Shown here in pieces: positions 32,119 through 61,592 of a stretch of DNA of 64,000 nt (its first letter is position 1; each line of letters starts with the position of its first letter). This stretch comes from Gammaproteobacteria bacterium. GTDB lineage: Bacteria > Pseudomonadota > Gammaproteobacteria > SZUA-229. A model generated the notes under the pieces. That model did no database searches, was not told where the DNA came from, and was given only the letters and a program-made list of their open reading frames with translations. The stretch covers positions 59,028 to 123,027 of the forward strand of contig JABDRN010000028.1 in NCBI GenBank assembly GCA_013041745.1. The letters are read 5' to 3'. The position numbers and the translations under genes were made by a program.

Positions 32119-32122
32119 ATTA

Positions 32123-33838: not shown

Positions 33839-33858
33839 CGGGATTACAGGTAACGACT

Positions 33859-35067: not shown

Positions 35068-35069
35068 TC

Positions 35070-36641: not shown

Positions 36642-37263
36642 TCAGATAACACCAACCCTCATGCGAGCTATCGGTGTATTCGTTGTGATACTGGTGGTTA
36701 GCGTCATCGTCATCTCGATCTCTTATGTCTATTTGGACGATGTGTTCAATGACCAGCAAGCAGCCAAGCGGGCCATGCGTGTCTGGCAGACCAAGATTAA
36801 CAGCTCGGTCGAGAACAATCAGATCATAGATGAGTTCGAGAGTAACTTTTTAAAGCTGGTAAACCAGGGAGTGGTCGGTGCCGAGGACAGGCTTAGCTGG
36901 TTTGAGACGATCCAGAATACGACGAAAAAACGCGGTATGCCATCAGTTAAATACAGTATCTCGACACAGGCAGCGCTCGATGAAGGCAACCTAAAAGTAG
37001 ACTATCGGGGTATCGATGTCTTCAAAAGCCTGATGACGCTGGATATCAAGATGGCTCATGAAGGTGACCTGTTCGCATTACTAAACGATCTGGAGAAAGC
37101 AGATGGACTGTTCGCAGTCGACCGTTGTGACATAGAAAAGATAAGCAAAACAACCGTTGATACAGAGAATGCCATGAAAGCATACTGTGAGCTCGGCTGG
37201 TACACCTTCCGAGGATCGCGGGCAAATGCCAGGGCAAGTGGTGGTCGAAGAAATGAGAGCTAA
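36634..37263 (+). CDS. PilO/MshJ-like pilus assembly protein
   Basis: N-terminal TM and a coiled/periplasmic domain; overlaps the upstream stop by 8 nt. Confidence 0.5.
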   Translation: MFSQITPTLMRAIGVFVVILVVSVIVISISYVYLDDVFNDQQAAKRAMRVWQTKINSSVENNQIIDEFESNFLKLVNQGVVGAEDRLSWFETIQNTTKKRGMPSVKYSISTQAALDEGNLKVDYRGIDVFKSLMTLDIKMAHEGDLFALLNDLEKADGLFAVDRCDIEKISKTTVDTENAMKAYCELGWYTFRGSRANARASGGRRNES

Positions 37264-37645
37264 TAAAATTTTCCTCTGTCTAATATCGATTTTTTTTAGT
37301 GGTGTGTCATCGGCTGAATATAATGCCGATGACTTGAACAAGCTGTTCACTGATAAAAATCAGCGCGCGCGGATCGATGCGGCTCGATCAGGCTTGACTG
37401 GTTCTGCTAAACAAACAGACAAGGTCAAAGTGGATGGATATGTTACGCGAAGCGATGGAAAAAGTGTGGTATGGATTAATGGCCAGAGCACGCTTGATAG
37501 CTCGAGGGTCGGGAATATTCGAGTCCACCAGTCTTCGATGCATAAGGATAAAAAAGTCGGTATAAGTATCGACGGTGAAAGCAGGCGTCTCAGACCAGGG
37601 GAAACCTGGAGCAAGAGTACGGGTAAAATCGTTGATTCTCAATGA
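37253..37645 (+). CDS. MshK-like small periplasmic pilus assembly protein
   Basis: Signal peptide MRANKIFLCLISIFFSGVSSA; about 130 aa. Start placed at the in-frame ATG 37253. Confidence 0.5.
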   Translation: MRANKIFLCLISIFFSGVSSAEYNADDLNKLFTDKNQRARIDAARSGLTGSAKQTDKVKVDGYVTRSDGKSVVWINGQSTLDSSRVGNIRVHQSSMHKDKKVGISIDGESRRLRPGETWSKSTGKIVDSQ

Positions 37646-39131: not shown

Positions 39132-39925
39132 AAACACATGAACAAAATGGCTTTACCTTGATAGAGATAGCGGTCGTACTCGTTATCGTCGGCGTGCTCG
39201 TGGGCAGTTTTATCGGTTCGGTCTCCAGCAGGATAGAGACCACACGGCGAGATGATACCAAACAGCAGCTCGAGGAGATAAAAGAGGCGATAATCGGGCA
39301 TGCAATCACACACGGTAGGCTGCCATGCCCGACAACGACCACCGGCCTGGGCCGCGAACAGCCAGGCCCCGGCGTCTGTACCTGGCAACACGGTTTTGTT
39401 CCAGGGGTGACGCTCGGCCTGAGCGGTAATTACAACAGGGACGGCCTGTTGACAGACAGCTGGGGCAACCCGATAAGGTATACCGTAGCTACATCAAACG
39501 GCAGTGCACTGACGAGGTCACCTGGGGCGGGCGGCATGGTTGATGTCGGCATGGCTGCACTGGCGCCGGCACTGATCGTATGCGATGGCGATAGTACTGT
39601 GATTGACGACTGTGCCGGCGCCCCTGCTCCTGCAAAATTGACCGATGAGGCACCATTCATAATCCTGTCTCTGGGAAAAGATGGCAGTGGTTTTGTTACT
39701 AATGTGGCACCAAATTCTGACCAGGGTGAAAACGCGGGAGAGGTTGCAGTAGCAGCAAATGCTGCGGGAGAGAATGTTGCTTATACTGTTGCTGGAAACC
39801 GTGTCTTCGTCAGTAAAGCATATAGTGATGAAGTGTCAGCAGCGGGCCGTTTTGATGATATTATCGTCTGGGAGTCTAAGTACGTGCTTTATAGCCGTAT
39901 GATGAATGCTGGTCAATTACCATAA
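39122..39925 (+). CDS. Type IV pilin-like protein (N-methylation motif)
   Basis: N-terminus MSLKTHEQNG|FTLIEIAVVLVIVGVLVG. Confidence 0.7.
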   Translation: MSLKTHEQNGFTLIEIAVVLVIVGVLVGSFIGSVSSRIETTRRDDTKQQLEEIKEAIIGHAITHGRLPCPTTTTGLGREQPGPGVCTWQHGFVPGVTLGLSGNYNRDGLLTDSWGNPIRYTVATSNGSALTRSPGAGGMVDVGMAALAPALIVCDGDSTVIDDCAGAPAPAKLTDEAPFIILSLGKDGSGFVTNVAPNSDQGENAGEVAVAANAAGENVAYTVAGNRVFVSKAYSDEVSAAGRFDDIIVWESKYVLYSRMMNAGQLP

Positions 39926-45089: not shown

Positions 45090-46502
45090 TTAAAGCTCGA
45101 GCTCCTTGATCTTTCTGGTCAGGGTGTTGCGTCCCCAGCCAAGTAATTTGGCAGCATCATTTTTTTTACCTTTGGTTTTTTGCAGTGCGGCTTCTATCAG
45201 TATCCCTTCCACCTGCGCGATAATCTTCGAAGCGATATTGGTTTCTCCCGATAGTAACTGTTGTTGCGCGGTGGTCGAAAGTATCTGCTTCCAGTCGCCA
45301 CCATTTTCAGCGTCGCTAATCTGGTCATTACTAAGAAGCTCGGCTGGCAGATCTGACAGGTGTACGGTTTGTCCGGAGGTCATGACTGCCAACCACTTAC
45401 AGGTATTCTCCAGTTGCCGAACATTGCCAGGCCAGTTGAGAGAAGTAAGGTATGCGATTGTTTCATCATCTATCGATTTGGGTTCCGCAGAATCGTCATC
45501 GATGGCCAGCTCTCTTACGGCACGCTGTAAGAACAGATTGAATAATCCCGGGATGTCCTCTTTACGCTCGCGTAGAGGTGGGAGCTGTATTCGGATGACA
45601 TTCAAGCGGTGGTAGAGATCTTCACGGAACAGTCCCTGCTTGACATTCTCTTCCAGATTCTGATGTGTTGCAGCGATAACACGAACATTGACCTTGATCG
45701 GGGTATGCCCGCCGACTCGATAGAAAACACCATCGGCCAGTACGCGTAACAGGCGAGTCTGCAACTCAGCAGGCATATCGCCGATCTCATCGAGAAACAA
45801 TGTGCCGCCATCTGCCTGTTCGAAACGGCCTTTTCGTAATGCCTGTGCACCGGTAAAAGCCCCTTTTTCATGACCGAATAACTCTGACTCTAACAGTTCT
45901 TTAGGTATAGCGGCGGTGTTCAATGCAATAAAAGCGTTATTGGCGCGTGGACTGTGTTTGTGCAGTGACAGTGCGACGAGTTCTTTACCGGTACCGGATT
46001 CGCCCGTAATCAGGACACTGATGACCGACTTTGACAAGCGCCCGATAGTACGAAAAACCTCCTGCATGGCAGGAGCTGCACCTATGATCTCTGGTCCTTC
46101 CTGATTGCTGTAGAGGTCGCTGCTGCTGTCCAGCTTTTTCTTGCACGCACGCTGAGCGACCTCAATGGCATCATCGATATCAAAAGGTTTTGGCAGGTAT
46201 TCAAATGCCCCTCCCTGGTAAGCAGAAACCGCACTATCAAGGTCTGTGTGTGCAGTCATGATAATGACTGGCAGGTCAGGGTGATCTGTCGAAAGCTGGG
46301 ATAATAACTCCAGGCCATCGATACCAGGCATACGTACATCAGTGATGATGGCGTCGGGCGTCTCCTGTTGTAGCCTCTGTAATATGGTATTGGCATTATC
46401 AAAACTGGTCACGATGAAGCCGGCACCTTCGAGTGCTTTCTGTAACACCCATCGAATTGAGTCGTCATCGTCAATGATCCAGATGTGATTCTGTGCAGTC
46501 AT
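45090..46502 (-). CDS. ntrC: Nitrogen regulation protein NR(I), NtrC/GlnG
   Basis: Receiver [14 protein letters not shown], sigma54 AAA+ ([21 protein letters not shown]) and HTH; sits downstream of ntrB and glnA. Confidence 0.9.
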
Positions 46503-47593
46503 TAATCTGCTCCATTATGTATATTTATAGGTAATAAAATCGTAAAAATAGTTTTATCTGGCTGGCTGGTAAACTCGATTAAACCATTGTGTTGCTGTAC
46601 CAGAGATTGTGCTATTGATAAACCGAGGCCTGTGCCTTCGGCATGCCCTGTGATCATGGGCATAAATATTTTTTCATGTAACTCTTCAGGTACGCCGCTG
46701 CCGTTGTCTTCGATTTCTATCTTTGCGACAAGGGCGTGAGTTTGAGTCCCGATCGTACAGTTCCGCTGTGCTCGTGTCCGATAGATGATCTTGCCATCAG
46801 AAGAGCCATCAGTGTTAGAGGTGATCGCTTTAACTGCGTTCCGCGTAATATTGAGTATCACCTGAATTATCATAGACTCATCAGCGTTCAACTCAGGGAT
46901 ACTGGGGTCGTAGTCTGCAACGACAGATACCTCATCATTCTCAGCGAGAACAAGTTTTCTGACGTGTTCCAGAATTTTATGAATATTGGTATCACTTTTC
47001 GTGGGAATATCTTTAGGGCCGACCATCCGGTCCAGCAGGTTTTTTAAGCGGTCGGCCTCATTGATAATGATCTGGGTAAACTGTTTGTTATCTTCATCGG
47101 TCAGCTCTCTTTCAAGCAGTTGGGCAGCACCTCGAATACCACCCAGAGGATTCTTGATCTCATGAGCCAGTCCGCGTAACAGGGATTTGCTGGCTTCATA
47201 CTGGCTGAGGATGCTGTCCTCATGTGAATGCTTATGCTGTGAATTTATGCGTATGAACTCTAGTAATAAATATTTACCTTCGCTCATATATTCTATCGGA
47301 GAAACGGAATAGTCTACCTCTATTGTCTTCTGGTTATGTAACAGCAGCTCACTTTCATAAACCGTATAAGGGTGGTTGGAAATCACCGACCGCTCCAGGC
47401 GGTCAAAAAACTCATATTCTTCGATGACCAGCTCACGTATATTTTTTTCCATCGCACGGTTGTTACTGACGTGGAAGAGCATCTCGGCTGCAGGATTAAT
47501 GCAGACGATCCGTAGGTCCTCGCCGATGACAATAACAGCAGAGTGCAGGTTATCGATGATTGTTTGTGGCGATTTATATTCTGTAGAAACCAT
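46502..47593 (-). CDS. ntrB: Nitrogen regulation sensor kinase NR(II), NtrB/GlnL
   Basis: PAS N-terminus, H-box HEIKNPLGGIRGAAQLL and HATPase_c. Stop overlaps the ntrC start. Confidence 0.9.
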   Translation of the reverse strand: MVSTEYKSPQTIIDNLHSAVIVIGEDLRIVCINPAAEMLFHVSNNRAMEKNIRELVIEEYEFFDRLERSVISNHPYTVYESELLLHNQKTIEVDYSVSPIEYMSEGKYLLLEFIRINSQHKHSHEDSILSQYEASKSLLRGLAHEIKNPLGGIRGAAQLLERELTDEDNKQFTQIIINEADRLKNLLDRMVGPKDIPTKSDTNIHKILEHVRKLVLAENDEVSVVADYDPSIPELNADESMIIQVILNITRNAVKAITSNTDGSSDGKIIYRTRAQRNCTIGTQTHALVAKIEIEDNGSGVPEELHEKIFMPMITGHAEGTGLGLSIAQSLVQQHNGLIEFTSQPDKTIFTILLPINIHNGAD

Positions 47594-47723
47594 AATGTAT
47601 GTGATGCAATAACCGAACCAATTTTCAGAAAAGAATAAAAATATTTTATATTCTTATTTTTCAATGTGTTAGTGTGTCGATAAGGTGTCGAACTAACAGA
47701 TCAAATGGAAAGGCACATTCTAG

Positions 47724-47742
47724 CGCACCAACATGGTGCATG
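47724..47742. promoter_or_regulatory. NtrC-type dyad GCGCACCAacaTGGTGCATGC upstream of ntrB
   Basis: Matches the TGCACCA-N3-TGGTGCA consensus. Position is analogous to the NtrC-repressed glnL promoter in E. coli. Confidence 0.5.
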
Positions 47743-47781
47743 CCAGTGATTCTACAGTTTTGCTGATTTTCAGGCTGCGGA

Positions 47782-48327
47782 TTAGCGGGCCTGTCTTCTT
47801 ACCACAGTGTTTTTTATATGAATTGTAACGGGCTTGGTTCGCTTGATGATCTTGCCCTTTTTATTGCGGATCTGCGCCTGCAGGGTGTGTTGACCACGAT
47901 CAGAGCGGCCTATCTGTAATAACAGGCTCTGGCTGTTCTTTACGATTGGTTTACCATCCATCAACAGCCAGGTGGTATGGCCTTCTTCGGTACTCAGCGC
48001 CGGGGTCAGTTTGAGAGAGACCATCAGGTCAGGCTCGTTCCATATCGTCTGGTCGTTTACGGGTGCGCTGATACTGAATTTTGTGTATTTTGTCTCTGCT
48101 GCTTTTTCTTCTTTGACAACTTCTTCCTTTGGCGGTACCTTGAGCGGATCAACGACAGTTATCGCAGGAGGGGTAAACTGTTCTGAGTTTTCAAATGGCT
48201 TATCAGAATAGATGACGTTGCCTTCTTCATCCAGGCCTTTGTATAGTCCGGCGCTGATGCTTGATGCGTAAAAAATGGCGGTGATCAGGAAATATTTAAA
48301 CAGGGGAGTTCTCATGGCATCAAGCAT
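47782..48327 (-). CDS. DUF4124-like secreted protein between glnA and ntrB
   Basis: Signal peptide with a conserved LYKGLDEEGNVIYSDKP motif. Confidence 0.5.
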   Translation of the reverse strand: MLDAMRTPLFKYFLITAIFYASSISAGLYKGLDEEGNVIYSDKPFENSEQFTPPAITVVDPLKVPPKEEVVKEEKAAETKYTKFSISAPVNDQTIWNEPDLMVSLKLTPALSTEEGHTTWLLMDGKPIVKNSQSLLLQIGRSDRGQHTLQAQIRNKKGKIIKRTKPVTIHIKNTVVRRQAR

Positions 48328-48350
48328 AGCTTTCTATCGCTGTCACTGCA

Positions 48351-48383
48351 ATAAAAAAGCCCCGCATAAGTATGCGGGGCTTT
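48351..48383. terminator. Bidirectional intrinsic terminator downstream of glnA
   Basis: A6, then GCCCCGCA-taagta-TGCGGGGC, then T5. Confidence 0.8.
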
Positions 48384-48429
48384 TTGCTGTCAGACTGATA
48401 ACACCCCCGTTTCCGAGGGAGTGATTGAT

Positions 48430-49839
48430 TTACACGCTGTAGTACATATCGAACTCACAAGGATGTACCGATGCGCGGTAACGCTGGACTTCTTCGCTCT
48501 TCAAGTCAATGAAACCGTCGATCATGTCATCATCGAAGACACCGCCTTCGGTCAGGAATGCGCGATCTTCGTCCAGTGCTTTTAAAGCTTCATCAAATGA
48601 GAAAGCAACCTGTGGGATTTTGGCTTCTTCTTCTGGTGGCAGGTCATACAGGTCTTTGTCTGCAGCCGCACCTGGATCGATCTTGTTCCTGATACCGTCA
48701 AGGCCGGCCATCAGCATCGCTGCGAAACACAGGTATGGGTTAGCTGTATTATCACCGAAACGCACCTCGATACGGCGTGCTTTAGGGCTGGATACGTGAG
48801 GGATACGGATAGAGGCAGAACGGTTACGAGCAGAATATGCCAGCATAACAGGCGCTTCAAAACCGGGTACCAGGCGTTTGTAACTGTTGGTCGAAGCATT
48901 AGCGAATGCATTCAGCGCTTTGGCATGTTTGATGATGCCGCCGATGTAATACAGTGCTGTCTGAGACAGGCCGCCGTAGAGGTCACCAGAGAATGTATTT
49001 TCTCCGTCTTTGAAGATCGACTGGTGAACGTGCATACCGTTACCGTTATCACCGACCATCGGTTTTGGCATGAAAGTCGCGGTCTTTCCGTATGCATGCG
49101 CCACGTTGTGTACGACATATTTGTAGATCTGAACTTCGTCAGCTTTACGCACCATGGTGTTGAACAGCGCGCCGATCTCACACTGGCCTGCTGTTCCCAC
49201 TTCATGGTGGTGTACTTCTGTTTTACATCCCATGTCTTCCATAACCAGGCACATAGAAGATCGCAGGTCCTGCAATGAGTCTATCGGAGGAACCGGGAAG
49301 TAACCGCCTTTGACACCAGGACGGTGGCCCATGTTGTTGCCGTCGTAATCTTTACCAGTGTTCCAGGCGGCTTCTTCGGATTCGATCTTATAGAACACAC
49401 CGCCCATCTCGTCGCCCCACTGGACACCGTCGAAAACAAAGAACTCGTTTTCAGGACCGAAGTAAGCCGCATCGCCGATGCCGGTAGACTTCAGGTAAGC
49501 TTCAGCACGTTTCGCGATAGAGCGTGGGTCGCGGTTGTAGCCGGTCATGTCAGTCGGTTCGATGATATCGCATGTGATATTCATGGTGACTTCTTCACAG
49601 AACGGGTCGATAACCTGGGAATCACAGTCTGGCATCAGGATCATGTCAGATGCGTTAATACCTTTCCAGCCCTGAATTGACGAGCCGTCGAACATCTTGC
49701 CTTCGGTCAGACTGTCTTCATCAACGGTGTGTGACGGTACAGAAACGTGCTGTTCTTTACCCTGGGTATCAGTAAAACGAAAATCGACGAATTTAACGTC
49801 TTTTTCCTTAATCATATTTATAACGTCAGTTGCAGACAT
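48430..49839 (-). CDS. glnA: Glutamine synthetase type I
   Basis: Full-length GSI with conserved motifs including the adenylylation-site region (NLYDLPPEE). Confidence 0.95.
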
Positions 49840-52488: not shown

Positions 52489-52863
52489 GAGAATAAACAG
52501 GTGATATTGCCTGATAACATAACGGTACTGCAAAGTTTCCACGTCATCTCGGTTTTGTCCACTGGTAATGGCGGGCTATGTTTCATAAGGCAGTATAAGG
52601 TTGCGTTAGATCAGGATAAATTCTAACAAGGTATCATATCTCAAGCCTTGATCGTTTTGTGATAATTATAAGGTGCCTTCCATGGCGTGTGAGGAGTCTC
52701 GTCCTTGTATGATTCAAACTCTGTAATGTGATTCAGTTGAGCACCAAAACTACTGGTAGCAGGCGCTTCACCTAAATGAGTTTACAGGGTGTTCAGACAT
52801 AGTCATGTGCAACATGCATGCCAGCGATAAAACCGGTATCTGCAGTCGATTACAAGGTGAAGT

Positions 52864-52973: not shown

Positions 52974-52989
52974 TGGCATGACTATTGCT
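52974..52989 (+). promoter_or_regulatory. Sigma54 promoter TGGCATGactaTTGCT driving the ANTAR regulator
   Basis: Near-consensus -24 GG and -12 TTGC with correct spacing. It overlaps the ORF-track ATG at 52978, which argues for a downstream start. Confidence 0.6.
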
Positions 52990-53025
52990 ATTTGTTACAT
53001 GTATGAAAACCAAGAAGATTTGTAT

Positions 53026-53598
53026 ATGGACCTGATCCTTGTTGCCGACAACCTGGATAGCGCTCAGCCATTATTGAGAGTTGCATCAAAGTCTGGCTAT
53101 CGAATAGTGAAGTTGATCGAAGTGGATGCTGATGCCAGCAGGTATGTGGAATCATTGCGCCCTGACGCCCTGATAGTGCTCAGTGATGAAATAGACCGGC
53201 TAGTGTTACGGCAGATGAAAGCTATCACCGCAAAACAACCCTTACCGATGGTTGTTTTTACCCGTGATTCTAATCCCGATTCTATCGATGCCGCTGTAAA
53301 AGCCGGTGCTAGTACTTATGTAGTTGACTGTAATGATCCTGAGAGGCTGGGCTCTCTGCTGGGTGTGGCCAGGTCGAGGTTCGATGAGCAGCAACGCTTA
53401 CAGAAAGAGCTGCTGCAGACAAAGATCGCACTGTCCGACCGGAAGAATGTAGAAAGAGCAAAAGGTATCATCATGAAAACCAAGAGCGTAAGTGAAGACC
53501 AGGCTTATAACGCGATGCGAAAACTGGCGATGAACCATAATAAACGCATAGGTGAAATAGCTGAGCAGATAATCTCAGCGTCTGAAGTCCTGGTCTAA
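53026..53598 (+). CDS. NasT/AmiR-like response regulator with C-terminal ANTAR RNA-binding antitermination domain
   Basis: Receiver-like N-terminus (MDLILVADN...) and ANTAR (LSDRKNVERAKGIIMKTKSVSEDQAYNAMRKLAMNHNKRIGEIAEQII). Confidence 0.8.
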   Translation: MDLILVADNLDSAQPLLRVASKSGYRIVKLIEVDADASRYVESLRPDALIVLSDEIDRLVLRQMKAITAKQPLPMVVFTRDSNPDSIDAAVKAGASTYVVDCNDPERLGSLLGVARSRFDEQQRLQKELLQTKIALSDRKNVERAKGIIMKTKSVSEDQAYNAMRKLAMNHNKRIGEIAEQIISASEVLV

Positions 53599-53697
53599 TA
53601 GACGTTATTAAAGTTCAGTCATCAGCTGGATTGATCTATGTTCTCCTGACCCATCATGACAGCGTAAAATATATAACATAAGTCTTTCAGGTGAAAA

Positions 53698-54669
53698 ATG
53701 GGATGGCTAGATAAATCAATCAGTAAACAGCGTAGTTTTATAGAAGGTTTATTACTTGATCCTTTGAGCAAGCTTGCCGATATATGTGTTGACAGCTGGA
53801 GTGACAGGAAAAAGCTGGATCAGAGTCTGAAAGCCTATCTGCAGGCGAAAACAGATCACCGCTGTTCTTTATTGTATGCGATAGACATAAAGGGCCTGCA
53901 GTACAGCAGTAATATCTCAAAAGATATGGTCGATGAAGCCATCATCGGTCAGGACCTGTCGCACAGGCCTTATCTAAAAAGCATCGATAATGGCAGTGAA
54001 ACACAGTTGTTGCTTAGTGATGTCTACATCGATAAGCAGACCCGCAAGCCCTGTATAACAGTGCTACATGAGGTCAGGTCGAATCATGAGGTCATCGGCT
54101 ATATCGCTGCTGATTTCGGACTGAAAGATCTGCCGTTAAAAAACGTTAATGAGTTACAGTCATATGAATGGCGCCAGATAAAAGGCGATCCTTCCATACG
54201 TGGTACGATGTTTCAGCAGACGCGGGTCCGCAGTTCGATGGATCAGCATATCGATGAAGTGCTCGATGTGGTCGAGTCCCTGATGACAGAGCAGGGGGTG
54301 TTTCACGTAAAGCTGCATTTCTCCAGTTCACGAGCGACACTATGGTCATACAGTGATCCTTATCGATATCGTCTGCATGTATTGGACGAGATAATTAATC
54401 CTAAAGTTTGTCTCGTCTATGAAAAAGTGCCTTACCCTGAGCAGGCCCTGGTCACGGCCGGTATGGTGCACAACGTGTTAAAAGCTTTCAAGCTTTTGAG
54501 GGATGCTGATGAAACTATCTACCTGCGGGCCGCGTCATTGAATATAATGAACGGGCTGGTCGGACTCAACTTCTCCTGCGACGGCTCTCATTATATGCCA
54601 GCCAATGAATTTCTCGAAAAAGACCTGAGGTTCTGGTTTGGCGAAGAAACTATCTGTGTCAATGCCTAG
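53698..54669 (+). CDS. Cytoplasmic Cache/PAS-like sensor protein; putative ligand-sensing partner of the ANTAR regulator
   Basis: No TM. Cache-like motif RPYLKSI...LLLSDVYIDKQTRKPCITVLHEV...EVIGYIAADFGL. Sits where nasS would be but is unrelated to NrtA-type binding proteins. Confidence 0.5.
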   Translation: MGWLDKSISKQRSFIEGLLLDPLSKLADICVDSWSDRKKLDQSLKAYLQAKTDHRCSLLYAIDIKGLQYSSNISKDMVDEAIIGQDLSHRPYLKSIDNGSETQLLLSDVYIDKQTRKPCITVLHEVRSNHEVIGYIAADFGLKDLPLKNVNELQSYEWRQIKGDPSIRGTMFQQTRVRSSMDQHIDEVLDVVESLMTEQGVFHVKLHFSSSRATLWSYSDPYRYRLHVLDEIINPKVCLVYEKVPYPEQALVTAGMVHNVLKAFKLLRDADETIYLRAASLNIMNGLVGLNFSCDGSHYMPANEFLEKDLRFWFGEETICVNA

Positions 54670-56440: not shown

Positions 56441-56456
56441 TGGCACGTTCTATGCT
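56441..56456 (+). promoter_or_regulatory. Sigma54-like promoter TGGCACGttctaTGCT of the flavo-heme operon
   Basis: Consensus -24 TGGCACG; the -12 is TGCT (one mismatch) with correct spacing. About 20 nt upstream of ANTAR hairpin P1. Confidence 0.45.
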
Positions 56457-56474: not shown

Positions 56475-56546
56475 CTGGTCAATGGCGGCCAGTCTGAATA
56501 AATACATTTTTTAGATAATTATCTAAGACACAAAGCAATGGTGCTT
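56475..56546 (+). ncRNA. ANTAR-target dual hexaloop hairpins (P1 56475-56492 CUGGUC[AAUGGC]GGCCAG; P2 56533-56546 AAGC[AAUGGU]GCUU) in the operon leader
   Basis: Both loops are hexaloops with A at position 1 and G at position 4, the ANTAR-target signature. P2 overlaps the 5' arm of the terminator. Confidence 0.55.
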
Positions 56547-56586
56547 GTATGCGGATTAGTTTCGTATGCAAGCGCCATTTTTTTTG
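56538..56586 (+). terminator. Leader intrinsic terminator (attenuator) upstream of the flavoprotein gene
   Basis: A 16-bp stem (AUGGUGCUUGUAUGCG / CGUAUGCAAGCGCCAU with 3 G-U pairs), 9-nt loop, then T8. Located 25 nt before the start codon. Confidence 0.7.
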
Positions 56587-56610
56587 TGCCGTTTAAAAGT
56601 CGATAGTTTT

Positions 56611-58629
56611 ATGAGCGCAATGCTAGAAAAGATCGTACCTGTAGCACAGGTCTCATCAGATAACGCAGTTTGTATCGCTGCCGAGACGGCCGCAATCGTC
56701 ATCGTTGGCAGTGGTCCTGTCGGTATGCAGTTTGCCAATGAACTCATGCTACGTAATACCGATGCACCCGTTATCGTTTATGGCAGCGAGCCTGTGCAGC
56801 CATACAACAGGGTAAGGCTCTCAGACTATCTTGCCGGTGAGGTATACCGTGATGCGCTTTCGATCGAGGAGCCTGTTTCAGGTAATGCAAATATCGAGTT
56901 TCGTTATAACTGTGCCGTCGAGTGGATCGATAAGAAAGAAAGGTTTATAACCGATGCCAGTGGCAGGGTGCAGCGATATTCAAAGCTGGTGCTGGTCACA
57001 GGGTCAACACCATTTATACCGATGTTTGGCAACCGCCATTACGAAGGTGTCTATACCTTTCGTACACTGGGCCAGGCGGATGAACTGCTCTCCAGAAAAA
57101 TCCGTACCAGGCATACTGTTGTCATAGGCGGAGGTCTGCTGGGCATTGAAACTGCGCGTGCCATGCAGAAGTATCATACAGATATAACCATCGTCGAACA
57201 TAACAGATGGTTGATGATGCAGCAGCTCGATGAGAAGGGTTCATCATATCTTGAGGACTACATCAAAAAGAACGGGATAAATATAGTACTCGATGACAGT
57301 GTCGTCAGTGTTACGGGAAATGGCCGTGTCGAGGGTGTAACGCTACGTAGCGGTAAAACAATAGAATGCGATACATTAATCGTAGCCGCCGGAGTTCGAC
57401 CGAATATTTCGCTGGCCAGGGATGCCGGACTGGTCTACCACAAAGGCATCCGTATCGATAATCATTTGCAGACCTCAGAGAAGGATATCTTTGCTATCGG
57501 TGAGTGTGCAGAACATGACGAAAATGTTTACGGGCTGGTAAAACCAGGTTTTGATCAGGCGGCTGTTCTTGCGGAGCGTTTGACAGGCGGTGATGCTCAG
57601 TATGTCGGGTCGATAAGTACGACAAAGTTGAAGGTCATGTCACAGGCAGTTTTCAGTGCTGGACGCAATGGTATAGATGAAGAGCCTGGTGCGTCCGTTA
57701 GTGAATATGTTTTCAGCGATAAGGATGCTGGTATATATCGAAAGATTCGCATCTTCGGGAATCGTATCATCGGTGTGATCGCCGTCGGTGAATGGCATGA
57801 GAGTGCTCTTATCAATGAAGCCATACAGGAAAGACGCAAGTTCTGGTTCTGGCACCTGGTCCGTTTCAAAGCCACTGGAAATATCTGGGGTGATGCAGAT
57901 GATATCGATGTATCGACATGGCCAGCGTCTGCGACCGTATGTAACTGTACCGGGGTGACACGAGGCAGATTAAGCAGCGTAGTTAACAGTGGATGTGAGG
58001 ATGTCGCCTGCCTTACCAGGATGACGCGCGCTGGAAGTGTCTGTGGCTCATGCAAACCGTTACTGGCGGAGATGTTAGGTGAGTCAGCTGATATCGAACC
58101 GGTACGGTCATGGCGGGGGCTGCTGGCTTTATCTGCACTGACTGTTGTTATCACAGTGATGTTCGCATTGTTCTGGCCGATACCGTTTGCTGATAGTGTG
58201 CAGTACGAAATACGCTGGGATGAATTATGGCGAGACTCACTGTTCAAGCAGATCAGTGGTTTCAGTATGCTGGGGCTGATCGTAATCGGACTTTTCATCT
58301 CGCTGCGAAAGCGCAGTTCTAAAGTCAGCTTCGGAGATTATGACCTGTGGCGTATATCTCACATCGTGCTCGGTATCGTCGCCCTGGCAGTGCTCATCGC
58401 GCATACCGGTTTTCGTTTAGGCAATGAACTGAATATGCTGCTGATGATTAATTTTTTATTGCTGGCTGCGGCCGGTGCAAGCGCCAGTACTGTCGTGGCA
58501 ACCGAGCATCGCATGGTGCCGGCAGTCGCAAAGAAGAAGCGCAAGATGTGGAACAAGGTGCACCTGTTTCTGTTCTGGTCTCTGCCTGTACTCCTGGGTT
58601 TTCATGTCTTGAAGACATATTACTACTGA
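56611..58629 (+). CDS. NirB-N-terminal-like NAD(P)H flavoprotein (FAD/NAD plus BFD [2Fe-2S]) fused to a C-terminal His-rich 5-TM domain
   Basis: GSGPVG and GGGLLG Rossmann motifs; GECAEHDENVYGLVKPGFDQAAV (compare NirB GECASWNNRVFGLVAPGYKMAQV); BFD-like CNCTGVTRGRL...CGSCKP; then five hydrophobic helices with His residues. No siroheme or 4Fe-4S domain. Start at the internal Met after the terminator. Confidence 0.75.
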   Translation: MSAMLEKIVPVAQVSSDNAVCIAAETAAIVIVGSGPVGMQFANELMLRNTDAPVIVYGSEPVQPYNRVRLSDYLAGEVYRDALSIEEPVSGNANIEFRYNCAVEWIDKKERFITDASGRVQRYSKLVLVTGSTPFIPMFGNRHYEGVYTFRTLGQADELLSRKIRTRHTVVIGGGLLGIETARAMQKYHTDITIVEHNRWLMMQQLDEKGSSYLEDYIKKNGINIVLDDSVVSVTGNGRVEGVTLRSGKTIECDTLIVAAGVRPNISLARDAGLVYHKGIRIDNHLQTSEKDIFAIGECAEHDENVYGLVKPGFDQAAVLAERLTGGDAQYVGSISTTKLKVMSQAVFSAGRNGIDEEPGASVSEYVFSDKDAGIYRKIRIFGNRIIGVIAVGEWHESALINEAIQERRKFWFWHLVRFKATGNIWGDADDIDVSTWPASATVCNCTGVTRGRLSSVVNSGCEDVACLTRMTRAGSVCGSCKPLLAEMLGESADIEPVRSWRGLLALSALTVVITVMFALFWPIPFADSVQYEIRWDELWRDSLFKQISGFSMLGLIVIGLFISLRKRSSKVSFGDYDLWRISHIVLGIVALAVLIAHTGFRLGNELNMLLMINFLLLAAAGASASTVVATEHRMVPAVAKKKRKMWNKVHLFLFWSLPVLLGFHVLKTYYY

Positions 58630-58650: not shown

Positions 58651-60072
58651 ATGAATGTGAGTGAGACGGCACTGAAGTGGATCTTATGGATAGTACTAAC
58701 AACGATAATTGTTATATGGCTAGGTTATTCGATGCTTTCTGAGTCAGCAGATAAAACGATATTTATGCCCGGGCCATTAAGTCCGGGGCATCATCAGCTG
58801 GCAGATGCCTGTGGTGCTTGCCATGCTGATGCTTTTGGCGGCGGAGAAGTGCTGCAGCAGTCCTGTGTTGACTGCCATGGCGAAGACAGGGTGAAGCCTT
58901 TTGATTCTCACCCAGCAAAAAAATTTAAGGATCCACGTAATGTTGAGCTCTTAGAAAATATCGATGCCCTGATGTGTACCAGCTGCCATACAGAACATCG
59001 TCCAGAGATCACGGCAAAAGATGGCGTGACACAGCCGATCGATTTCTGTGTTCACTGTCACCAGGATGTTGCTGAGGAGCGACCGTCACATGAAGGTATG
59101 GCCTTTGATACCTGTAAAGATTCTGGCTGTCACAATTTTCATAATAATCGTGCTCTGTATACCGACTTTCTGATTAAGCATCTCGATGAGCCGCCGACAT
59201 TGAAACAAGTCGTGCTGCCCGCAAAAGAGTATCTCGATGTTATCGATGAAGTCGTCGAGTACCCCCGAGAAAAATATCCACTGACTCAACTCGAAGAAAA
59301 AGATATCGATGCCGTGGAACGGCTGACTGTCAGTCCAGAGATAAAAAAAGACTGGCTCGAAACATCACATGCTAAATCGGGTGTCAATTGTACAGCATGC
59401 CATATAACGGAGGATGGTAGCGGCAGTGAGAAATGGACTGACCATCCTGAGCACCAGGCCTGCTCGAGTTGCCATAGTGTGGAAGTATCGCGTTTTACAG
59501 AGGGTAAGCATGGCATGCGTCTTAAACAGGGACTGTCACCGATGACGCCAGAGAATGCCATGCTGCCGATGAAAGAAGCTGCGCAACATGAAGATCTTAC
59601 CTGCAGCAGCTGCCATGGCGCTCATCGATTCGATGTGGTGTCGGCCGCTGTCGAATCATGCCTTGGCTGTCACGATGATGACCATAGCCTCGCTTACGAG
59701 CAGTCGCCACATTATCAGCTGTGGCAGAAAGAGATAAGCGGTGAAGCTGAAGCTGGCACCGGCGTTTCCTGCGCCAGTTGCCACATGCCACGTATCAGTT
59801 ATGACGTCAGTGAATGGTCAAGTCGCATAATCGTCGACCACAACCAGAGTGCAAACCTGTCGCCCAACAGCAAGATGATCCGTTCCAGTTGCCTGCACTG
59901 TCATGGCCTGGAGTTTACCTTGGAAGCATTGATCGACGTGAATATGATCAACAATAACTTCACTGGAAAGCCCGTTATTAATAGCGAAACGATGGACCTT
60001 GCCGACAGCGAAAACCAGAGACGCCTGAAGGCGGCGGCTGAAGATGAAGATGCTGGCATGTTCGGTTTCTAG
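58651..60072 (+). CDS. Membrane-anchored multiheme cytochrome c (10-11 heme sites); NapC/NrfH-like tetraheme N-module plus an additional multiheme domain
   Basis: N-terminal TM, then CGACH, CVDCH, CTSCH, CVHCH within about 130 aa, then CTACH, CSSCH, CSSCH, CLGCH, CASCH, CLHCH and one CX4CH (CKDSGCH). Confidence 0.8.
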   Translation: MNVSETALKWILWIVLTTIIVIWLGYSMLSESADKTIFMPGPLSPGHHQLADACGACHADAFGGGEVLQQSCVDCHGEDRVKPFDSHPAKKFKDPRNVELLENIDALMCTSCHTEHRPEITAKDGVTQPIDFCVHCHQDVAEERPSHEGMAFDTCKDSGCHNFHNNRALYTDFLIKHLDEPPTLKQVVLPAKEYLDVIDEVVEYPREKYPLTQLEEKDIDAVERLTVSPEIKKDWLETSHAKSGVNCTACHITEDGSGSEKWTDHPEHQACSSCHSVEVSRFTEGKHGMRLKQGLSPMTPENAMLPMKEAAQHEDLTCSSCHGAHRFDVVSAAVESCLGCHDDDHSLAYEQSPHYQLWQKEISGEAEAGTGVSCASCHMPRISYDVSEWSSRIIVDHNQSANLSPNSKMIRSSCLHCHGLEFTLEALIDVNMINNNFTGKPVINSETMDLADSENQRRLKAAAEDEDAGMFGF

Positions 60073-60134
60073 AGAGTAGCAGAAAACTAACCGTTGATTT
60101 TTCAACATAAACAAACTTGACCTTAGAGGTGATT

Positions 60135-60743
60135 ATGAAAAACATGAAACACAATTTGAAACGAAAGCTGATGATTGGCACTGCAGTATCTGCTATCGCA
60201 GCTGCCACGGCTGTCAGTGCCGAGGTCTCTGATGCAAAAGTATCTGTAAAAGCGATGGCAGATGCATTACACCTGGTGATGGATTCCGATCGTTCGGTAT
60301 ATACCAAGAAGATCGTGAACAGGCTGGTGAAAAAAGAGAAAGTGATCAAAGCGTCCGAACACTTCGAAGATGAAAAAGCACTGGTGTTGCCAGCACAGAT
60401 GTTCAGGTTCGGTTCGGAGATGGCGGCAAAGCGAGCAGAGAAACTGGATGATGTTAATTTCAGTTATACCCTGCAGTCGCTATGGCCTATCAATAAACAG
60501 AATGCGCCGAAGACCAATGCAGAAAAAGCAGGTTTGAAATATGTCGCGGAGAACAAGGGTAAAAATTATTACACGACCGAGAAGCTTGGCGGGGTAAATT
60601 ATTTTACCGCAGTTTACGCAGATACGGGTGTCGCACCGGTATGTGTTTCATGTCATAACAAGCACCCGGACACACCGAAAAAAGATTTTAAGATCGGTGA
60701 CGTAATGGGTGGCGTAGTTATCCGTATACCGGTTGAAGGCTAA
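60135..60743 (+). CDS. Periplasmic monoheme c-type protein, DUF3365/Tll0287-like (PAS-like heme c)
   Basis: Signal peptide; single C-terminal CVSCHNKH. SD AGAGGTGATT directly before the ATG. Confidence 0.5.
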   Translation: MKNMKHNLKRKLMIGTAVSAIAAATAVSAEVSDAKVSVKAMADALHLVMDSDRSVYTKKIVNRLVKKEKVIKASEHFEDEKALVLPAQMFRFGSEMAAKRAEKLDDVNFSYTLQSLWPINKQNAPKTNAEKAGLKYVAENKGKNYYTTEKLGGVNYFTAVYADTGVAPVCVSCHNKHPDTPKKDFKIGDVMGGVVIRIPVEG

Positions 60744-60754
60744 TAGATAGCACT

Positions 60755-61156
60755 ATGTTGACCGGACTAGGTAACATTATATCTCTTGCATTCTCTGTTG
60801 TAGTCTTTACCACGGTCATGGTATCAGAGGCGCTGGCGGATAATGCGGATTATATTCAGTCAGGTGATGAAGCACTGCAACAGGGCCGAGGCCTGTGGCT
60901 GGAGAACTGCGAGGGATGTCATGGTTATGGTATCGCAGACGCACCGATACCTATGCAAGCTGGCGACTGGAAGCACCGCGTGATAAAGGAAAGAGAGGTT
61001 CTATATCGTCATGCTATAGAAGGTTTTATCGGTGAGGACTATAGCATGATGCCGGCACGCGGCGGTAATGAAGAATTAAACGACGACCAGGTTAAAGCGG
61101 CGGTGGATTATATGCTGTTCCTGGCAAATTTTTATATCAAACAACAAGACAATTAA
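60755..61156 (+). CDS. Class I cytochrome c (c5-like)
   Basis: Signal peptide, CEGCHGYG, and a distal Met region (DYSMMPARGG). Confidence 0.75.
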   Translation: MLTGLGNIISLAFSVVVFTTVMVSEALADNADYIQSGDEALQQGRGLWLENCEGCHGYGIADAPIPMQAGDWKHRVIKEREVLYRHAIEGFIGEDYSMMPARGGNEELNDDQVKAAVDYMLFLANFYIKQQDN

Positions 61157-61166
61157 CGAGGTGATT

Positions 61167-61592
61167 ATGATAACTCCACAACAGAAAGAACTGGTACAAA
61201 AAACATGGGTGATGGTCGTGCCTATCGCTGATACGGCCGCCGAGCTTTTTTATGGCCGATTATTCGAGCTGGAGCCCGAATACAAGAAGATGTTTAAAAA
61301 CGATATGACAGAGCAGGGTAAAAAGCTGATGAAGACGATCAATATCGCTGTAGAAGCGCTTGATGATGTCGAACCACTGGTCCCGGTGCTAAAAAAGATG
61401 GGTGCTGACCATGCAGGTTATGGCGTAAAAGAGCGTGACTACAACGTCGTCGGTGCAGCCCTGTTATGGACGCTGGAAAAAGGTCTGGGTGACGCCTTTA
61501 CCGATGAGGTCAAAAATGCCTGGGGTGCAGTCTATGAATTACTGGCAAGCGTGATGAAGTCTGGTGCAGCAGAAGCAGAACAGGCAGCATAA
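61167..61592 (+). CDS. Single-domain bacterial globin (Vitreoscilla-Hb / flavohemoglobin N-domain-like)
   Basis: Aligns to VHb: B10 Tyr (FYGRLF), E7 Gln, proximal His (GADHAGYGV), and ...NVVGAALLWTLEKGLGDAFTDEVKNAWGAVYELLASVM. Same GAGGTGATTATG start context as the 60135 gene. Confidence 0.8.
   Translation: MITPQQKELVQKTWVMVVPIADTAAELFYGRLFELEPEYKKMFKNDMTEQGKKLMKTINIAVEALDDVEPLVPVLKKMGADHAGYGVKERDYNVVGAALLWTLEKGLGDAFTDEVKNAWGAVYELLASVMKSGAAEAEQAA

Follow-up and report, generated by a model that had tools for sequence, protein, structure and literature searches.

The locus lies in a metagenome-assembled genome, in the window analysed here (the whole 64,000-nucleotide stretch of DNA, in whose coordinates all positions are given). 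At its centre is a gene for a fusion protein, followed by a cassette of genes for haem proteins:

56611..58629, plus strand: fusion gene, 672 aa when read from M16, taken from the list of open reading frames and matching NCBI MBT8118745.1 exactly
56695..57834, plus strand: flavoprotein module of the FAD/NAD(H) two-dinucleotide-binding type together with its C-terminal domain, aa 44-423, recognised by Pyr_redox_2, Pyr_redox and Rubredoxin_C and by the NirB and NorW models
57934..58080, plus strand: BFD-like [2Fe-2S] domain, aa 457-505, assigned by Fer2_BFD (PF04324, E 2.5e-9) and by the invariance of its cysteines
58108..58626, plus strand: C-terminal domain with five transmembrane helices (TMs), a putative dihaem cytochrome b, aa 515-687, delimited by hydropathy, an AlphaFold2 model and conserved histidines
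58651..60072, plus strand: membrane-anchored undecahaem cytochrome c, 473 aa, the presumed periplasmic partner, recognised by its haem motifs and adjoining the fusion gene
60117..60743, plus strand: stand-alone periplasmic haem-c protein, Tll0287-like (DUF3365, 'sCache_heme'), carrying a signal peptide (PF11845, E 2e-19)
60755..61156, plus strand: class I monohaem cytochrome c with a signal peptide (PF13442, PF00034), present in 7 of 12 loci
61161..61592, plus strand: single-domain globin of the flavohaemoglobin type (PF00042; globin domain of NO-inducible flavohaemoprotein, E 7e-23)

Residues of the fusion protein are numbered throughout in a 687-aa frame. This frame is open without interruption from 56566 to 58629 on the plus strand in the ORF listing, and its first ATG, at 56566, is an alternative upstream start. 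The start at 56611 (M16) is the better choice, because it is that of MBT8118745.1, which NCBI names 'FAD-dependent oxidoreductase', and because the ATG at 56566 falls within the hairpin of an intrinsic terminator (56537-56585).

The N-terminal part of the protein is a flavoprotein. Pyr_redox_2 (PF07992) covers aa 44-326 (E 7e-54), Pyr_redox (PF00070) also matches (E 5e-22), and Rubredoxin_C follows at aa 353-423. Among NCBIfam models, NorW matches the flavoprotein module, and NirB (TIGR02374) aligns with an E-value of 1e-104 over model positions 1-468 of 794 only, scoring 351 bits, below the family cutoff of 578. The fusion protein thus lacks the sirohaem half of nitrite reductase; no Pfam match to the NIR_SIR domain (the sirohaem/[4Fe-4S] half) is found. 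A GxGxxG motif occupies aa 188-193, and Glu211 ends the second Rossmann β-strand, a position that suggests NADH as the electron donor. The GECA motif is present and its Cys314 is invariant. The four cysteines of the BFD-like domain are Cys459, Cys461, Cys493, and Cys496. A Foldseek search of the full-length model against the PDB recovered matches for the flavoprotein half only, the best being putidaredoxin reductase and ferredoxin reductases of the BphA4 type (E about 1e-33, TM-score to the target 0.82-0.89). These structural matches are NADH:ferredoxin reductases, enzymes that reduce [2Fe-2S] proteins.

Hydropathy identifies five hydrophobic segments in the C-terminal domain, and AlphaFold2 predicts five long helices, with a pLDDT of 90.5 for the full-length protein and 93.4 for the domain alone. 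The preliminary description of this stretch of DNA, made from its letters, had proposed just this composition: a NirB-type flavoprotein half and a BFD-like four-cysteine cluster, with five helices in the place of the sirohaem domain. All of these parts are recovered here. It had also pointed to paired histidines, which are indeed found on TM3, where His599 (58360-58362) and His613 (58402-58404) lie within SHIVLGIVALAVLIAHTGF, and on TM5, where His666 (58561-58563) and His680 (58603-58605) lie within VHLFLFWSLPVLLGFHV. On both helices the spacing is i/i+14, with 13 residues between the members of each pair. The two His-free helices TM2 and TM4 carry the invariant glycines Gly565 and Gly637. Glycines on the intervening helices together with histidines at i/i+14 on two helices form what we take to be the arrangement seen in cytochrome b of the bc1 and b6f complexes.

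The distribution of basic residues, counted from the sequence, is 12 Lys/Arg in the loops TM2-3 and TM4-5 versus 5 on the opposite side. This fits a predicted topology with the N-terminus in the cytoplasm, which would place one His pair near each face of the membrane.

Searches of 18 family members against Pfam returned recurrent matches of the membrane domain to DUF4405 (13 of 18, E < 1), DUF4079 (8 of 18), Ferric_reduct (5 of 18), and Ni_hydr_CYTB (3 of 18), all of them sub-threshold. For DUF4405 (PF14358) the scores are 17.9-18.4 bits against a gathering score of 26.7, still below threshold at a best E-value of 0.0014. Ferric_reduct (PF01794) reaches 16.5 bits against a cutoff of 28, also below threshold, and the model has five transmembrane helices, not six; Ni_hydr_CYTB (PF01292) gives a non-significant 13 bits. 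The recurrent sub-threshold matches are all to haem-b families. Among the 18 members, no significant match to a transporter family recurs, and a profile of the domain finds no match among PDB sequences, even at E 10. For one DUF4405 protein, haem b binding has been demonstrated by experiment (PMC11334425). From the four histidines and these matches we infer that the domain probably binds haem b, as the preliminary description had proposed.

A word-indexed protein search with the C-terminal domain gave 21 mostly fragmentary matches and missed the query's own cluster, so an exhaustive profile search was used for the family. It yielded 791 cluster representatives, nearly all of them with the domain at the C-terminus of proteins of ~640-690 aa. 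The hosts include a Planctomycete and Gammaproteobacteria, one of the latter being the sulfur-oxidising symbiont Thiosocius teredinicola, which is in culture. In an alignment of 78 full-length relatives (31-57% identity), His599, His613, His666, His680, the four BFD cysteines, and Cys314 are 100% conserved, while a fifth histidine, His648, is kept in only 35%. Since the mean column identity of the same alignment is 37%, the conservation of the key residues exceeds chance. Within the membrane domain, the conserved positions cluster at the His, Gly, RKR, and HTG sites.

These data bear on the possibility that the protein is an assembly or frameshift artefact, in which a truncated nirB has been joined to an unrelated membrane gene, or that its C-terminal part takes no part in redox chemistry and is a His-rich domain for transport or metal binding. 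The unusual architecture and the origin of the window in a metagenome-assembled genome would speak for an artefact. Hundreds of cluster representatives, however, show the same architecture, as do two complete genomes (CP050848.1 and CP019936.1), and the membrane domain is present, with its four histidines, in all orthologues examined. A transporter, in turn, is at odds with the Pfam results for the 18 members. We regard this explanation as hardly credible, and the frameshift or fusion artefact as effectively refuted by the family-wide architecture, the invariant residues, and the complete genomes.

Three relatives, rare variants of the family (P0052, P0117, and P0147), carry a different reductase N-terminal to the same transmembrane domain, composed of a BFD domain and an FNR-like FAD_binding_6/NAD_binding_1 pair, together with EF-hand or cNMP-binding domains. 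In both loci of this variant that were inspected, a multihaem cytochrome is encoded downstream. Because the reductase module is exchanged while the transmembrane domain and the cytochrome stay, this argues for the membrane domain as the acceptor of electrons from an NAD(P)H-flavin-[2Fe-2S] unit in the cytoplasm.

The synteny of the fusion gene was established in 12 loci, two of which were reached from the cytochrome instead of the fusion protein; a scan of genome contigs with a single protein as query had found one locus. The undecahaem cytochrome c gene is the next gene in all 12, including those of a Planctomycete and of T. teredinicola, which supports the link to the adjacent cytochromes made in the preliminary description. 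The Tll0287-like protein, whose family is described in bioRxiv 10.64898/2026.02.01.703092, is encoded in 11 of the 12 cassettes; its only cysteines are those of its CVSCH motif. A globin is found in nine cassettes, in one of which (L011) it is a truncated haemoglobin (PF01152) instead. Having no signal peptide, the globin of the present locus is assigned to the cytoplasm. No apbE gene or flavinylated partner occurs in the loci examined.

Conservation across 120 homologues defines eleven haem motifs in the large cytochrome, ten CXXCH and one CX4CH. Outside these motifs there are 13-14 conserved histidines, enough for bis-His ligation of all eleven haems, so that no catalytic haem is evident. 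The protein matches cytochrome c3 families in Pfam and has more than 2,800 homologues, which current databases label 'NrfA' or 'cytochrome c3 family'. The PGAP/NCBI name of the protein, 'ammonia-forming cytochrome c nitrite reductase', was considered and rejected: a CXXCK motif is absent and the similarity to NrfA is local only. The NCBIfam NrfA model, whose cutoff is 595 bits, gives 32.7, and alignments to sequences of NrfA and of octahaem nitrite reductase (TvNiR) from the PDB are weak and confined to the surroundings of individual haem motifs.

Taken together, we consider it likely that the fusion protein is a membrane-bound flavo-iron-sulfur-cytochrome b, which in one polypeptide would carry electrons outward across the membrane to the multihaem cytochrome. 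The FAD of the NirB/ferredoxin-reductase-like module, at the cytoplasmic face, would be reduced by NADH, the donor proposed from Glu211, and would pass single electrons to the BFD-type [2Fe-2S] cluster. From there, electrons would reach a haem b on the cytoplasmic side, held between His599 of TM3 and His666 of TM5, and then a second haem b on the periplasmic side, between His613 and His680. The undecahaem cytochrome c would be the next carrier, followed by the Tll0287-like haem-c protein and the monohaem cytochrome c. Cytoplasmic reducing power would in this way be spent on periplasmic reduction with the quinone pool bypassed, as in NOX or Fre-MsrQ. The same flavoprotein may also serve the co-encoded cytoplasmic globin.

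The same chain could run in reverse, with electrons from the periplasm entering at the low-potential multihaem cytochrome and crossing both haems b and then the [2Fe-2S] cluster before they reduce NAD(P)+ or another cytoplasmic acceptor; Hmc and Tmc carry electrons inward in this way. We judge this unlikely. In composition the system formally resembles Hmc and Tmc, which likewise combine a periplasmic multihaem cytochrome of the c3 type with a membrane cytochrome b and an Fe-S/flavin protein in the cytoplasm. The undecahaem protein does match cytochrome c3 families, and several hosts are sulfur-oxidising lithotrophs (Thiosocius, Sedimenticolaceae) in need of NAD(P)H. Electrons moving from the positive to the negative side, however, would work against the membrane potential, and a donor for NAD+ must have a very low potential. 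The NirB and ferredoxin-reductase relatives are moreover all oxidisers of NAD(P)H, and FNR-like heads under EF-hand or cNMP control resemble outward transfer of the NOX type. A class I cytochrome c, typically of high potential, and a globin are likewise poor companions for an NAD+-reducing chain.

The structural neighbours of the membrane domain are CybB, FdnI, hydrogenase cytochrome b, and cytochromes b/b6. As all of these are quinone-reactive, the domain might be a quinone-reactive cytochrome b too, and the fusion protein either an NADH:quinone oxidoreductase that contains haem or a quinol dehydrogenase serving the multihaem cytochrome. A ubiquinone cofactor recently reported in MsrQ (PMC12525009) lends this some weight. 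Against it, the fused NADH-flavin-[2Fe-2S] donor and the multihaem partner found in 12 of 12 loci already make up a full chain without quinone, and no conserved quinone-site motif was identified in the membrane domain, where conservation is concentrated at the sites named above. This role appears improbable to us.

Even less credit can be given to a mainly cytoplasmic function, in which the flavoprotein would reduce the co-encoded globin in a two-protein NO dioxygenase like Flp-Bjgb and the transmembrane domain, with or without haem, would be a tether. The recurrence of the globin in 9 of 12 cassettes, with its switch to a truncated haemoglobin, would be in keeping with such a function, as would the case of Bradyrhizobium, where Flp, under NasS-NasT control, is proposed to be the electron donor of the single-domain globin Bjgb (PMC4724949). 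Yet the globin is missing from three cassettes and the multihaem cytochrome from none, and a tether would leave four invariant histidines at i/i+14 and two invariant glycines unexplained. As an additional activity, reduction of the globin is compatible with outward electron transfer, the reading that we prefer.

Upstream of the fusion gene, several features suggest how the cassette may be controlled:

52978-53598, plus strand: ANTAR response-regulator-like gene (PF03861, E 5e-18)
53698-54669, plus strand: gene for a 323-aa protein with a weak Cache match only, following the ANTAR gene
56441..56456, plus strand: sigma-54-type -24/-12 promoter-like element TGGCACGTTCTATGCT, a pattern match 170 nt 5' of the start codon
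56475..56492, plus strand: conserved leader hairpin with A and G at positions 1 and 4 of its hexaloop AAUGGC, a candidate ANTAR target, from consensus fold and alignment
56537..56585, plus strand: intrinsic terminator in the leader, a 19-bp stem and then a T8 run just 5' of the start codon, with an equivalent in L001

The sigma-54 pattern has three matches in the window versus 0.15 expected, all between 52.8 and 56.5 kb, and a similar element precedes the fusion gene in four other loci (L001, L002, L007, and L012). By eye, NtrC-type palindromes 5' of the sigma-54-like promoter amount to half-sites only. The leader has a fold z-score of -5.2. In the consensus fold of three leaders, one of the six pairs of the hairpin is kept through changes on both sides, and the loop reads AAUGGC here, AAAGAC in L001, and GACGCC in L012. 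A canonical hairpin pair overlapping the terminator was not demonstrated in the leader, and Rfam at E-values up to 1 shows nothing relevant in 52.5-62 kb. The pair formed by the ANTAR gene and the gene for the 323-aa protein (52978..54669) recurs in L001, and L012 has an ANTAR gene too; the two proteins of the pair presumably regulate the leader terminator.

The genes around the cassette add to this picture. Near the fusion locus lie glnA-ntrBC, and NrtA-like transporters adjoin the cassette in L001 and L014. The uptake of globins from two different families into the cassette belongs to the same context. Such a nitrogen-related context is found in only part of the gammaproteobacterial loci; genes for ECF sigma factors, MarR regulators, or histidine kinases occur nearby elsewhere. 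An ANTAR-controlled unit of a flavoprotein and a globin for NO detoxification is known from Bradyrhizobium (PMC4724949). The sigma-54 and ANTAR signals hint at nitrogen oxides, and our best guess is a terminal reaction that reduces or detoxifies a nitrogen oxide species (nitrite, NO, or hydroxylamine).

A bolder scheme, possible though rather doubtful, would make the cassette a nitrite (or hydroxylamine/NO) reductase that is driven by NADH and needs no sirohaem. NirB would have had its catalytic half swapped for a transmembrane cytochrome b that exports electrons to an undecahaem cytochrome c of a new family in the periplasm, and the nitrogen species would be reduced outside the cytoplasm. In this lineage, the operon would be switched on by a sigma-54 activator, perhaps under nitrogen limitation, together with an ANTAR antiterminator. 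The transmembrane domain would be a portable 'electron export plug' used by at least two unrelated NAD(P)H-flavin modules.

The literature searched, outside subscription journals, yielded related systems and no published description of the fusion protein or the cassette. Periplasmic reductases of bacteria are usually fed from the quinone pool, and to our knowledge direct wires from NAD(P)H to the periplasm are few (NOX, Fre-MsrQ, and thiol relays of the DsbD type). If the proposed electron transfer is correct, the 791 representatives, with an 11-haem cytochrome family of >2,800 members, would constitute a widespread NAD(P)H-to-periplasm wire of a different design. The labels 'nitrite reductase large subunit' and 'NrfA' would then need correction in nitrogen-cycle metagenomics. 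The Tll0287-like haem-Cache protein and single-domain globins, for which the reductase partner has been a long-standing question, would gain a defined electron source. With hosts in culture, it could also be tested directly whether modular reductase heads are swapped on one shared transmembrane haem plug.

Among known systems, NirB (TIGR02374) shares the N-terminal 460-500 aa with the fusion protein, comprising the FAD/NAD(H) module with its GECA motif and the [2Fe-2S] domain of the BFD type. NirB is soluble and continues with the NIR_SIR half, whereas the fusion protein has five transmembrane helices in its place and is membrane-bound. The unit narK-bjgb-flp-nasC of Bradyrhizobium, controlled by NasS-NasT, likewise co-encodes an NAD(P)H flavoprotein with a single-domain globin and employs an ANTAR regulator, in a setting of nitrate assimilation and NO detoxification (PMC4724949). 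In contrast to the fusion protein, Flp as described there has neither a membrane haem domain nor a multihaem cytochrome partner, and the protein encoded beside the ANTAR gene at our locus is not NasS-like.

For the membrane domain, the commonest Pfam match is DUF4405 (PF14358), to be compared along with related cytochromes associated with flavinylation or ferrosomes (PepSY_TM, MsrQ, and FezC). The hallmark of DUF4405 is four central, highly conserved histidines; the domain studied here has four invariant histidines on TM3 and TM5. The characterised DUF4405 protein, however, is stand-alone, has six transmembrane helices, and is encoded in apbE/flavinylation clusters, while the fusion protein combines five helices with a cytoplasmic flavoprotein. 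CybB, Ni_hydr_CYTB, FdnI, and the cytochromes b of bc1 and b6f are quinone-reactive subunits; the fusion protein differs from them in its covalently attached NADH-flavin-FeS donor and has no significant sequence similarity to them. Hmc, Tmc, and Nhc of sulfate reducers link periplasm and cytoplasm with the same set of parts. Their protein families are unrelated in sequence as far as tested, and they carry electrons inward to sulfate reduction, whereas with an NADH-type flavoprotein the flow is probably outward.

With ferric reductases and NOX (PF01794), the fusion protein shares two His pairs, here on TM3 and TM5. The paired histidines of the FRD family are separated by 13 and 12 residues, compared with 13 and 13 in the fusion protein. 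The order of domains is the opposite of that in NOX, FRE, SpNOX, and Fre-MsrQ, since here the reductase comes first and the transmembrane domain is C-terminal. The fusion protein further departs from NOX and FRE in having five helices instead of six, an additional [2Fe-2S] relay, and, in most members, a reductase of the glutathione-reductase/ferredoxin-reductase fold rather than FNR. Its proposed acceptor is a dedicated multihaem cytochrome c, not O2, Fe(III), or MsrP as for NOX, FRE, and Fre-MsrQ. The fusion protein is best read as transmembrane electron transfer of the NOX/MsrQ type in a new form.

The fusion gene joins the flavoprotein half of a NirB-type nitrite reductase to a C-terminal membrane (TM) domain in one frame, whose residue numbering is used throughout:

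56566-58629, + strand: uninterrupted open reading frame of the fusion, 687 residues
Residues 44-326: Pyr_redox_2 (Pfam, E 7e-54)
Residues 183-261: Pyr_redox (Pfam)
Residues 353-423: Rubredoxin_C (Pfam)
Residues 457-505: Fer2_BFD (Pfam)
Residues 516-535, 558-583, 592-614, 621-645 and 652-686: five long helices of the AlphaFold2 model

The better start is 56611 (Met16, 672 residues), because the ATG at 56566 falls inside a terminator hairpin (56537-56585) and the shorter product matches, with full identity, NCBI entry MBT8118745.1 ('FAD-dependent oxidoreductase', Gammaproteobacteria MAG). The NCBIfam model for NirB, TIGR02374, aligns to the fusion with an E of 1e-104 over model positions 1-468 of 794 only, with a score of 351 bits where the cutoff is 578. 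The fusion thus keeps the NirB half that carries the flavoprotein and BFD parts and lacks the sirohaem/[4Fe-4S] half. The final ~180 residues contain five hydrophobic segments, and both hydropathy and AlphaFold2 give the five helices that the preliminary description had proposed as a replacement for the sirohaem domain. Its two His-bearing strings are also present (H599 with H613, H666 with H680), and its observation on the fusion is confirmed in all particulars.

The AlphaFold2 model, built from a 79-sequence alignment, has a pLDDT of 90.5 and a pTM of 0.77; the TM domain modelled by itself reaches 93.4 and 0.87. The best Foldseek matches of the full-length model are NADH-dependent ferredoxin reductases (E ~1e-33, TM-score to target 0.82-0.89), among them putidaredoxin reductase, BphA4, toluene dioxygenase reductase and rubredoxin reductase. 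Several such enzymes pass single electrons to small iron-sulfur proteins; the fusion carries its own [2Fe-2S] acceptor, the BFD domain. The acidic residue E211, which ends the second Rossmann β-strand, suggests a preference for NADH, following the general rule for this fold.

An exhaustive search of 1.84 billion cluster representatives, with a profile built on the C-terminal domain (alignment A2), retrieved 791 proteins with E ≤ 1e-3, of which 327 also passed E ≤ 1e-30. Among the best 150, roughly half measure 620-720 residues and have the TM domain at the extreme C-terminus, and many shorter ones look like N-terminally truncated fragments. In 78 full-length relatives (31-57% identity to the query), H599, H613, H666 and H680 are 100% conserved, as are the BFD cysteines C459, C461, C493 and C496 and the GECA cysteine C314; a fifth histidine, H648, is only 35% conserved. 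Further invariant or near-invariant residues of the TM domain are G565 (TM2), K582/R583, W595/R596, G637 (TM4) and P674, together with T614/G615 and G619 of an HTGxRxG motif. The same architecture occurs in the complete genomes of Planctomycetales bacterium ZRK34 (CP050848.1) and Thiosocius teredinicola (CP019936.1). The fusion is a conserved family, and its recurrence refutes the reading as an artefact.

The invariant histidines form one pair per helix, on TM3 and TM5, with 13 residues between the two (i, i+14), and each of the two intervening helices bears one invariant Gly. In the bc1/b6f complexes, cytochrome b sandwiches two haems b between His pairs on two helices, and Gly residues on alternate helices permit close haem packing; the TM domain shows the same His-pair/Gly arrangement. 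Since the flavoprotein must be cytoplasmic, TM1 runs from the inside to the outside. The TM2-TM3 and TM4-TM5 loops, with 12 Lys/Arg residues counted from the sequence against 5 in the acidic or short opposite loops, would then be cytoplasmic and the latter periplasmic, consistent with the positive-inside rule. This topology would place H599/H666 near the cytoplasmic face and H613/H680 near the periplasmic face, with one haem per leaflet.

When 18 family members were scanned against Pfam, all TM-domain matches fell below threshold. The recurrent ones are to haem-b families, namely DUF4405 (13/18, best E 0.0014), DUF4079 (8/18), Ferric_reduct (5/18) and Ni_hydr_CYTB (3/18), with sporadic matches to EccD (4/18) and Cation_ATPase_C (3/18). 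The comparison with DUF4405, cytochrome b561 and ferric-reductase models put forward in the preliminary description yielded recurrent matches, every one of them sub-threshold. A purified DUF4405 protein, with four central His as its hallmark, binds haem b in a pyridine haemochrome assay (PMC11334425). The TM-domain profile found no match among PDB sequences. In structural comparison, talin and other cofactor-free helical bundles score as well as cytochromes, so that the fold is compatible with a dihaem cytochrome and non-diagnostic; what argues for two haems is the conserved His/Gly pattern. A transporter identity is refuted. Alternatively, the TM domain might be a quinone-reactive cytochrome b.

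For a transmembrane relay, the strongest comparative evidence comes from three family members (P0052, P0117 and P0147) in which another reductase head precedes the same four-His domain. This head combines BFD with FNR-like FAD_binding_6/NAD_binding_1. Ahead of it lie two to three cyclic-nucleotide-binding domains or, alternatively, EF-hand domains. This layout, with its calcium or cNMP control, is similar to that of NOX5 with the domain order reversed. In both alternative-head loci looked up (variant genes at L008 6881-9922 and L010 704-3559), the multihaem cytochrome follows. With the head swapped and the cytochrome constant, the invariant unit consists of an NAD(P)H-flavin module, BFD, the four-His TM domain and the multihaem cytochrome c. 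The flavin module is interchangeable between family members, and the TM domain would relay electrons between a cytoplasmic flavo-Fe-S donor and a periplasmic cytochrome.

In the window, the fusion gene is followed by the other genes of the cassette:

58651-60072, + strand: undecahaem cytochrome c, 473 residues, N-terminal membrane anchor, directly 3' of the fusion
60117-60743, + strand: stand-alone Tll0287-like (DUF3365) haem-c protein with signal peptide
60755-61156, + strand: class I cytochrome c
61161-61592, + strand: cytoplasmic single-domain globin, flavohaemoglobin type

We compared 12 neighbourhoods, ten reached through members of the fusion family with as little as 31% identity (the window and loci L001, L002, L005, L006, L007, L008/9, L010, L011 and L012) and two, L013 and L014, reached independently from homologues of the multihaem cytochrome. 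This cytochrome lies directly 3' of the fusion in 12/12, supporting the proposed tie to the periplasmic cytochromes encoded next. The Tll0287-like gene is next in 11/12, a globin is found in 9/12 and a monohaem cytochrome c in 7/12. In the distant cassette of L011, a truncated haemoglobin (PF01152, 9104-9460) occupies the position of the flavohaemoglobin-type globin (PF00042), so that two globin families have been recruited independently to one module. The fusion could also act mainly in the cytoplasm as a globin reductase, a role compatible with transmembrane transfer. Just upstream of the cassette, two otherwise unrelated loci carry a metallo-β-lactamase-fold gene (L002 4467-5507; L005 6736-7608).

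Among Tll0287-like proteins, stand-alone forms have proposed redox roles and signalling-linked forms are NO sensors; the stand-alone Pseudomonas putida protein closely resembles Tll0287 and has Cys/His axial ligation (bioRxiv 10.64898/2026.02.01.703092). The protein of the window has no cysteines beyond its CVSCH motif, which rules out ligation of the P. putida type.

The undecahaem cytochrome is named 'ammonia-forming cytochrome c nitrite reductase subunit c552' by NCBI/PGAP and c552/NrfA by IMG. Its eleven haem-c motifs (ten CXXCH and one CX4CH) are all conserved in 120 homologues, together with 13-14 other His. A motif scan found no CXXCK, the score on the NrfA model is 32.7 bits (cutoff 595), and similarity to NrfA and octahaem nitrite reductase structures is local only, around individual haem motifs; identity as NrfA was accordingly rejected. 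The protein belongs to a large family of its own (> 2,800 matches; 58-85% identity in the best 120), and no catalytic haem is identifiable from its sequence. Given the absent CXXCK and the local similarity, the NrfA label is probably an over-annotation that is spreading into metagenome nitrogen-cycle surveys.

Analysis of the 420 nt upstream of the fusion gene revealed three elements, and further regulatory and nitrogen genes lie nearby:

45090-49839, - strand: glnA-DUF4124-ntrB-ntrC, glutamine synthetase and nitrogen two-component system
53698-54669, + strand: 323-residue protein, no signal peptide, weak sub-threshold dCache_1 (L001 8765-9736)
54780-56189, - strand: PhoX-like β-propeller protein, 469 residues, hydrophobic N-terminus, PF05787 over its C-terminal part
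56441-56456, + strand: sigma-54-type -24/-12 element, TGGCACGTTCTATGCT
56475-56492, + strand: conserved hairpin, hexaloop AAUGGC (ANNGNN)
56537-56585, + strand: strong intrinsic terminator ending ~25 nt before the start codon

In the 64-kb window, the pattern TGGCAYG-N4-WTGCW has three matches where 0.15 would be expected, all within 52.8-56.5 kb: 52808-52823 (-), 52974-52989 (+) and 56441-56456 (+), preceding a mobA-like gene, an ANTAR regulator gene and the fusion operon, respectively. The second overlaps the called start of the ANTAR reading frame, so translation probably begins at a later Met (MDLILVADN...). In L001, L002, L007 and L012, too, such an element stands ahead of the fusion gene. 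L001 also has the corresponding hairpin and terminator (9913-9932; 9965-10010), and no Rfam family matched the operon leader. The ANTAR response-regulator-like gene and, directly after it, the gene of its 323-residue partner lie just upstream of the operon in the window and L001; L012, too, has an ANTAR gene. The PhoX-like gene sits between the regulator pair and the operon, and is not at that position in L001 or L012.

The operons for nitrate assimilation in Klebsiella (NasR) and Azotobacter (NasS-NasT) are controlled by a sigma-54 promoter followed by a leader terminator that an ANTAR protein overrides. The hairpin and terminator are consistent with such antitermination, and the 323-residue protein, which has no NCBIfam match, may be the ligand sensor of the ANTAR protein, in the place of NasS or AmiC. 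The glnA-ntrC cluster is found some 6 kb ahead of the regulator genes, with the same arrangement in L012. In L001 and L014 the cassette has genes for NrtA-like ABC transporters as neighbours, and L001 further contains an MFS transporter. In Bradyrhizobium, an ANTAR-controlled operon encodes the NAD(P)H flavoprotein Flp and the single-domain globin Bjgb, which detoxify NO from nitrate assimilation (PMC4724949). Taken together, these observations point to a nitrogen-oxide-related role in this lineage, a tentative reading, less likely than not, because the Planctomycete and several other loci lack such a nitrogen context.

Elsewhere, the window carries a large type IV pilus/type II secretion-like cluster (24133-39925, + strand) with a secretin, a T2SSE ATPase with MshEN domain, T2SSF, prepilin-type N-methylation proteins and a sigma-54 activator (26221-27675), and a 1153-residue reading frame with no Pfam match (1386-4847, + strand).

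From the architecture, conservation and synteny observed for the cassette, we infer its cofactors, topology, electron direction and substrate. In the reading we favour, NADH would reduce FAD, and electrons would travel by way of the [2Fe-2S] cluster to two haems b in turn, at H599/H666 and H613/H680; the anchored undecahaem cytochrome c would receive them next, followed by the Tll0287-like protein and cytochrome c and finally a periplasmic acceptor. The same wire could run inward, as in Hmc/Tmc-like systems; this is disfavoured by the energetics and by the fact that all relatives of the flavoprotein oxidise NADH. Outward flow would dissipate energy, since it takes electrons from the membrane's negative side and consumes protons on the outside.

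Our literature search, of incomplete coverage, found no description of the fusion or the cassette. The family is widespread, lacks an annotation or carries a wrong one, and can be studied experimentally in the cultured hosts that exist. By analogy, the cassette resembles maintenance or detoxification wires (NOX, Fre-MsrQ) rather than a respiratory coupling site. It would share its working mode, a transmembrane haem relay, with NOX/FRE, Fre-MsrQ, DUF4405 and cytochrome b561-type proteins. Tests of membership in NOX/FRE, Fre-MsrQ, DUF4405 and NirB failed, and sequence similarity to cytochrome b561-type proteins was not significant. With NirB the front half is common and the sirohaem domain is lacking; the TM domain is below threshold for all haem-b Pfam families, has five helices rather than six and, compared with NOX, stands in reversed domain order. 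An extra Fe-S relay and a dedicated multihaem cytochrome partner set the fusion further apart.
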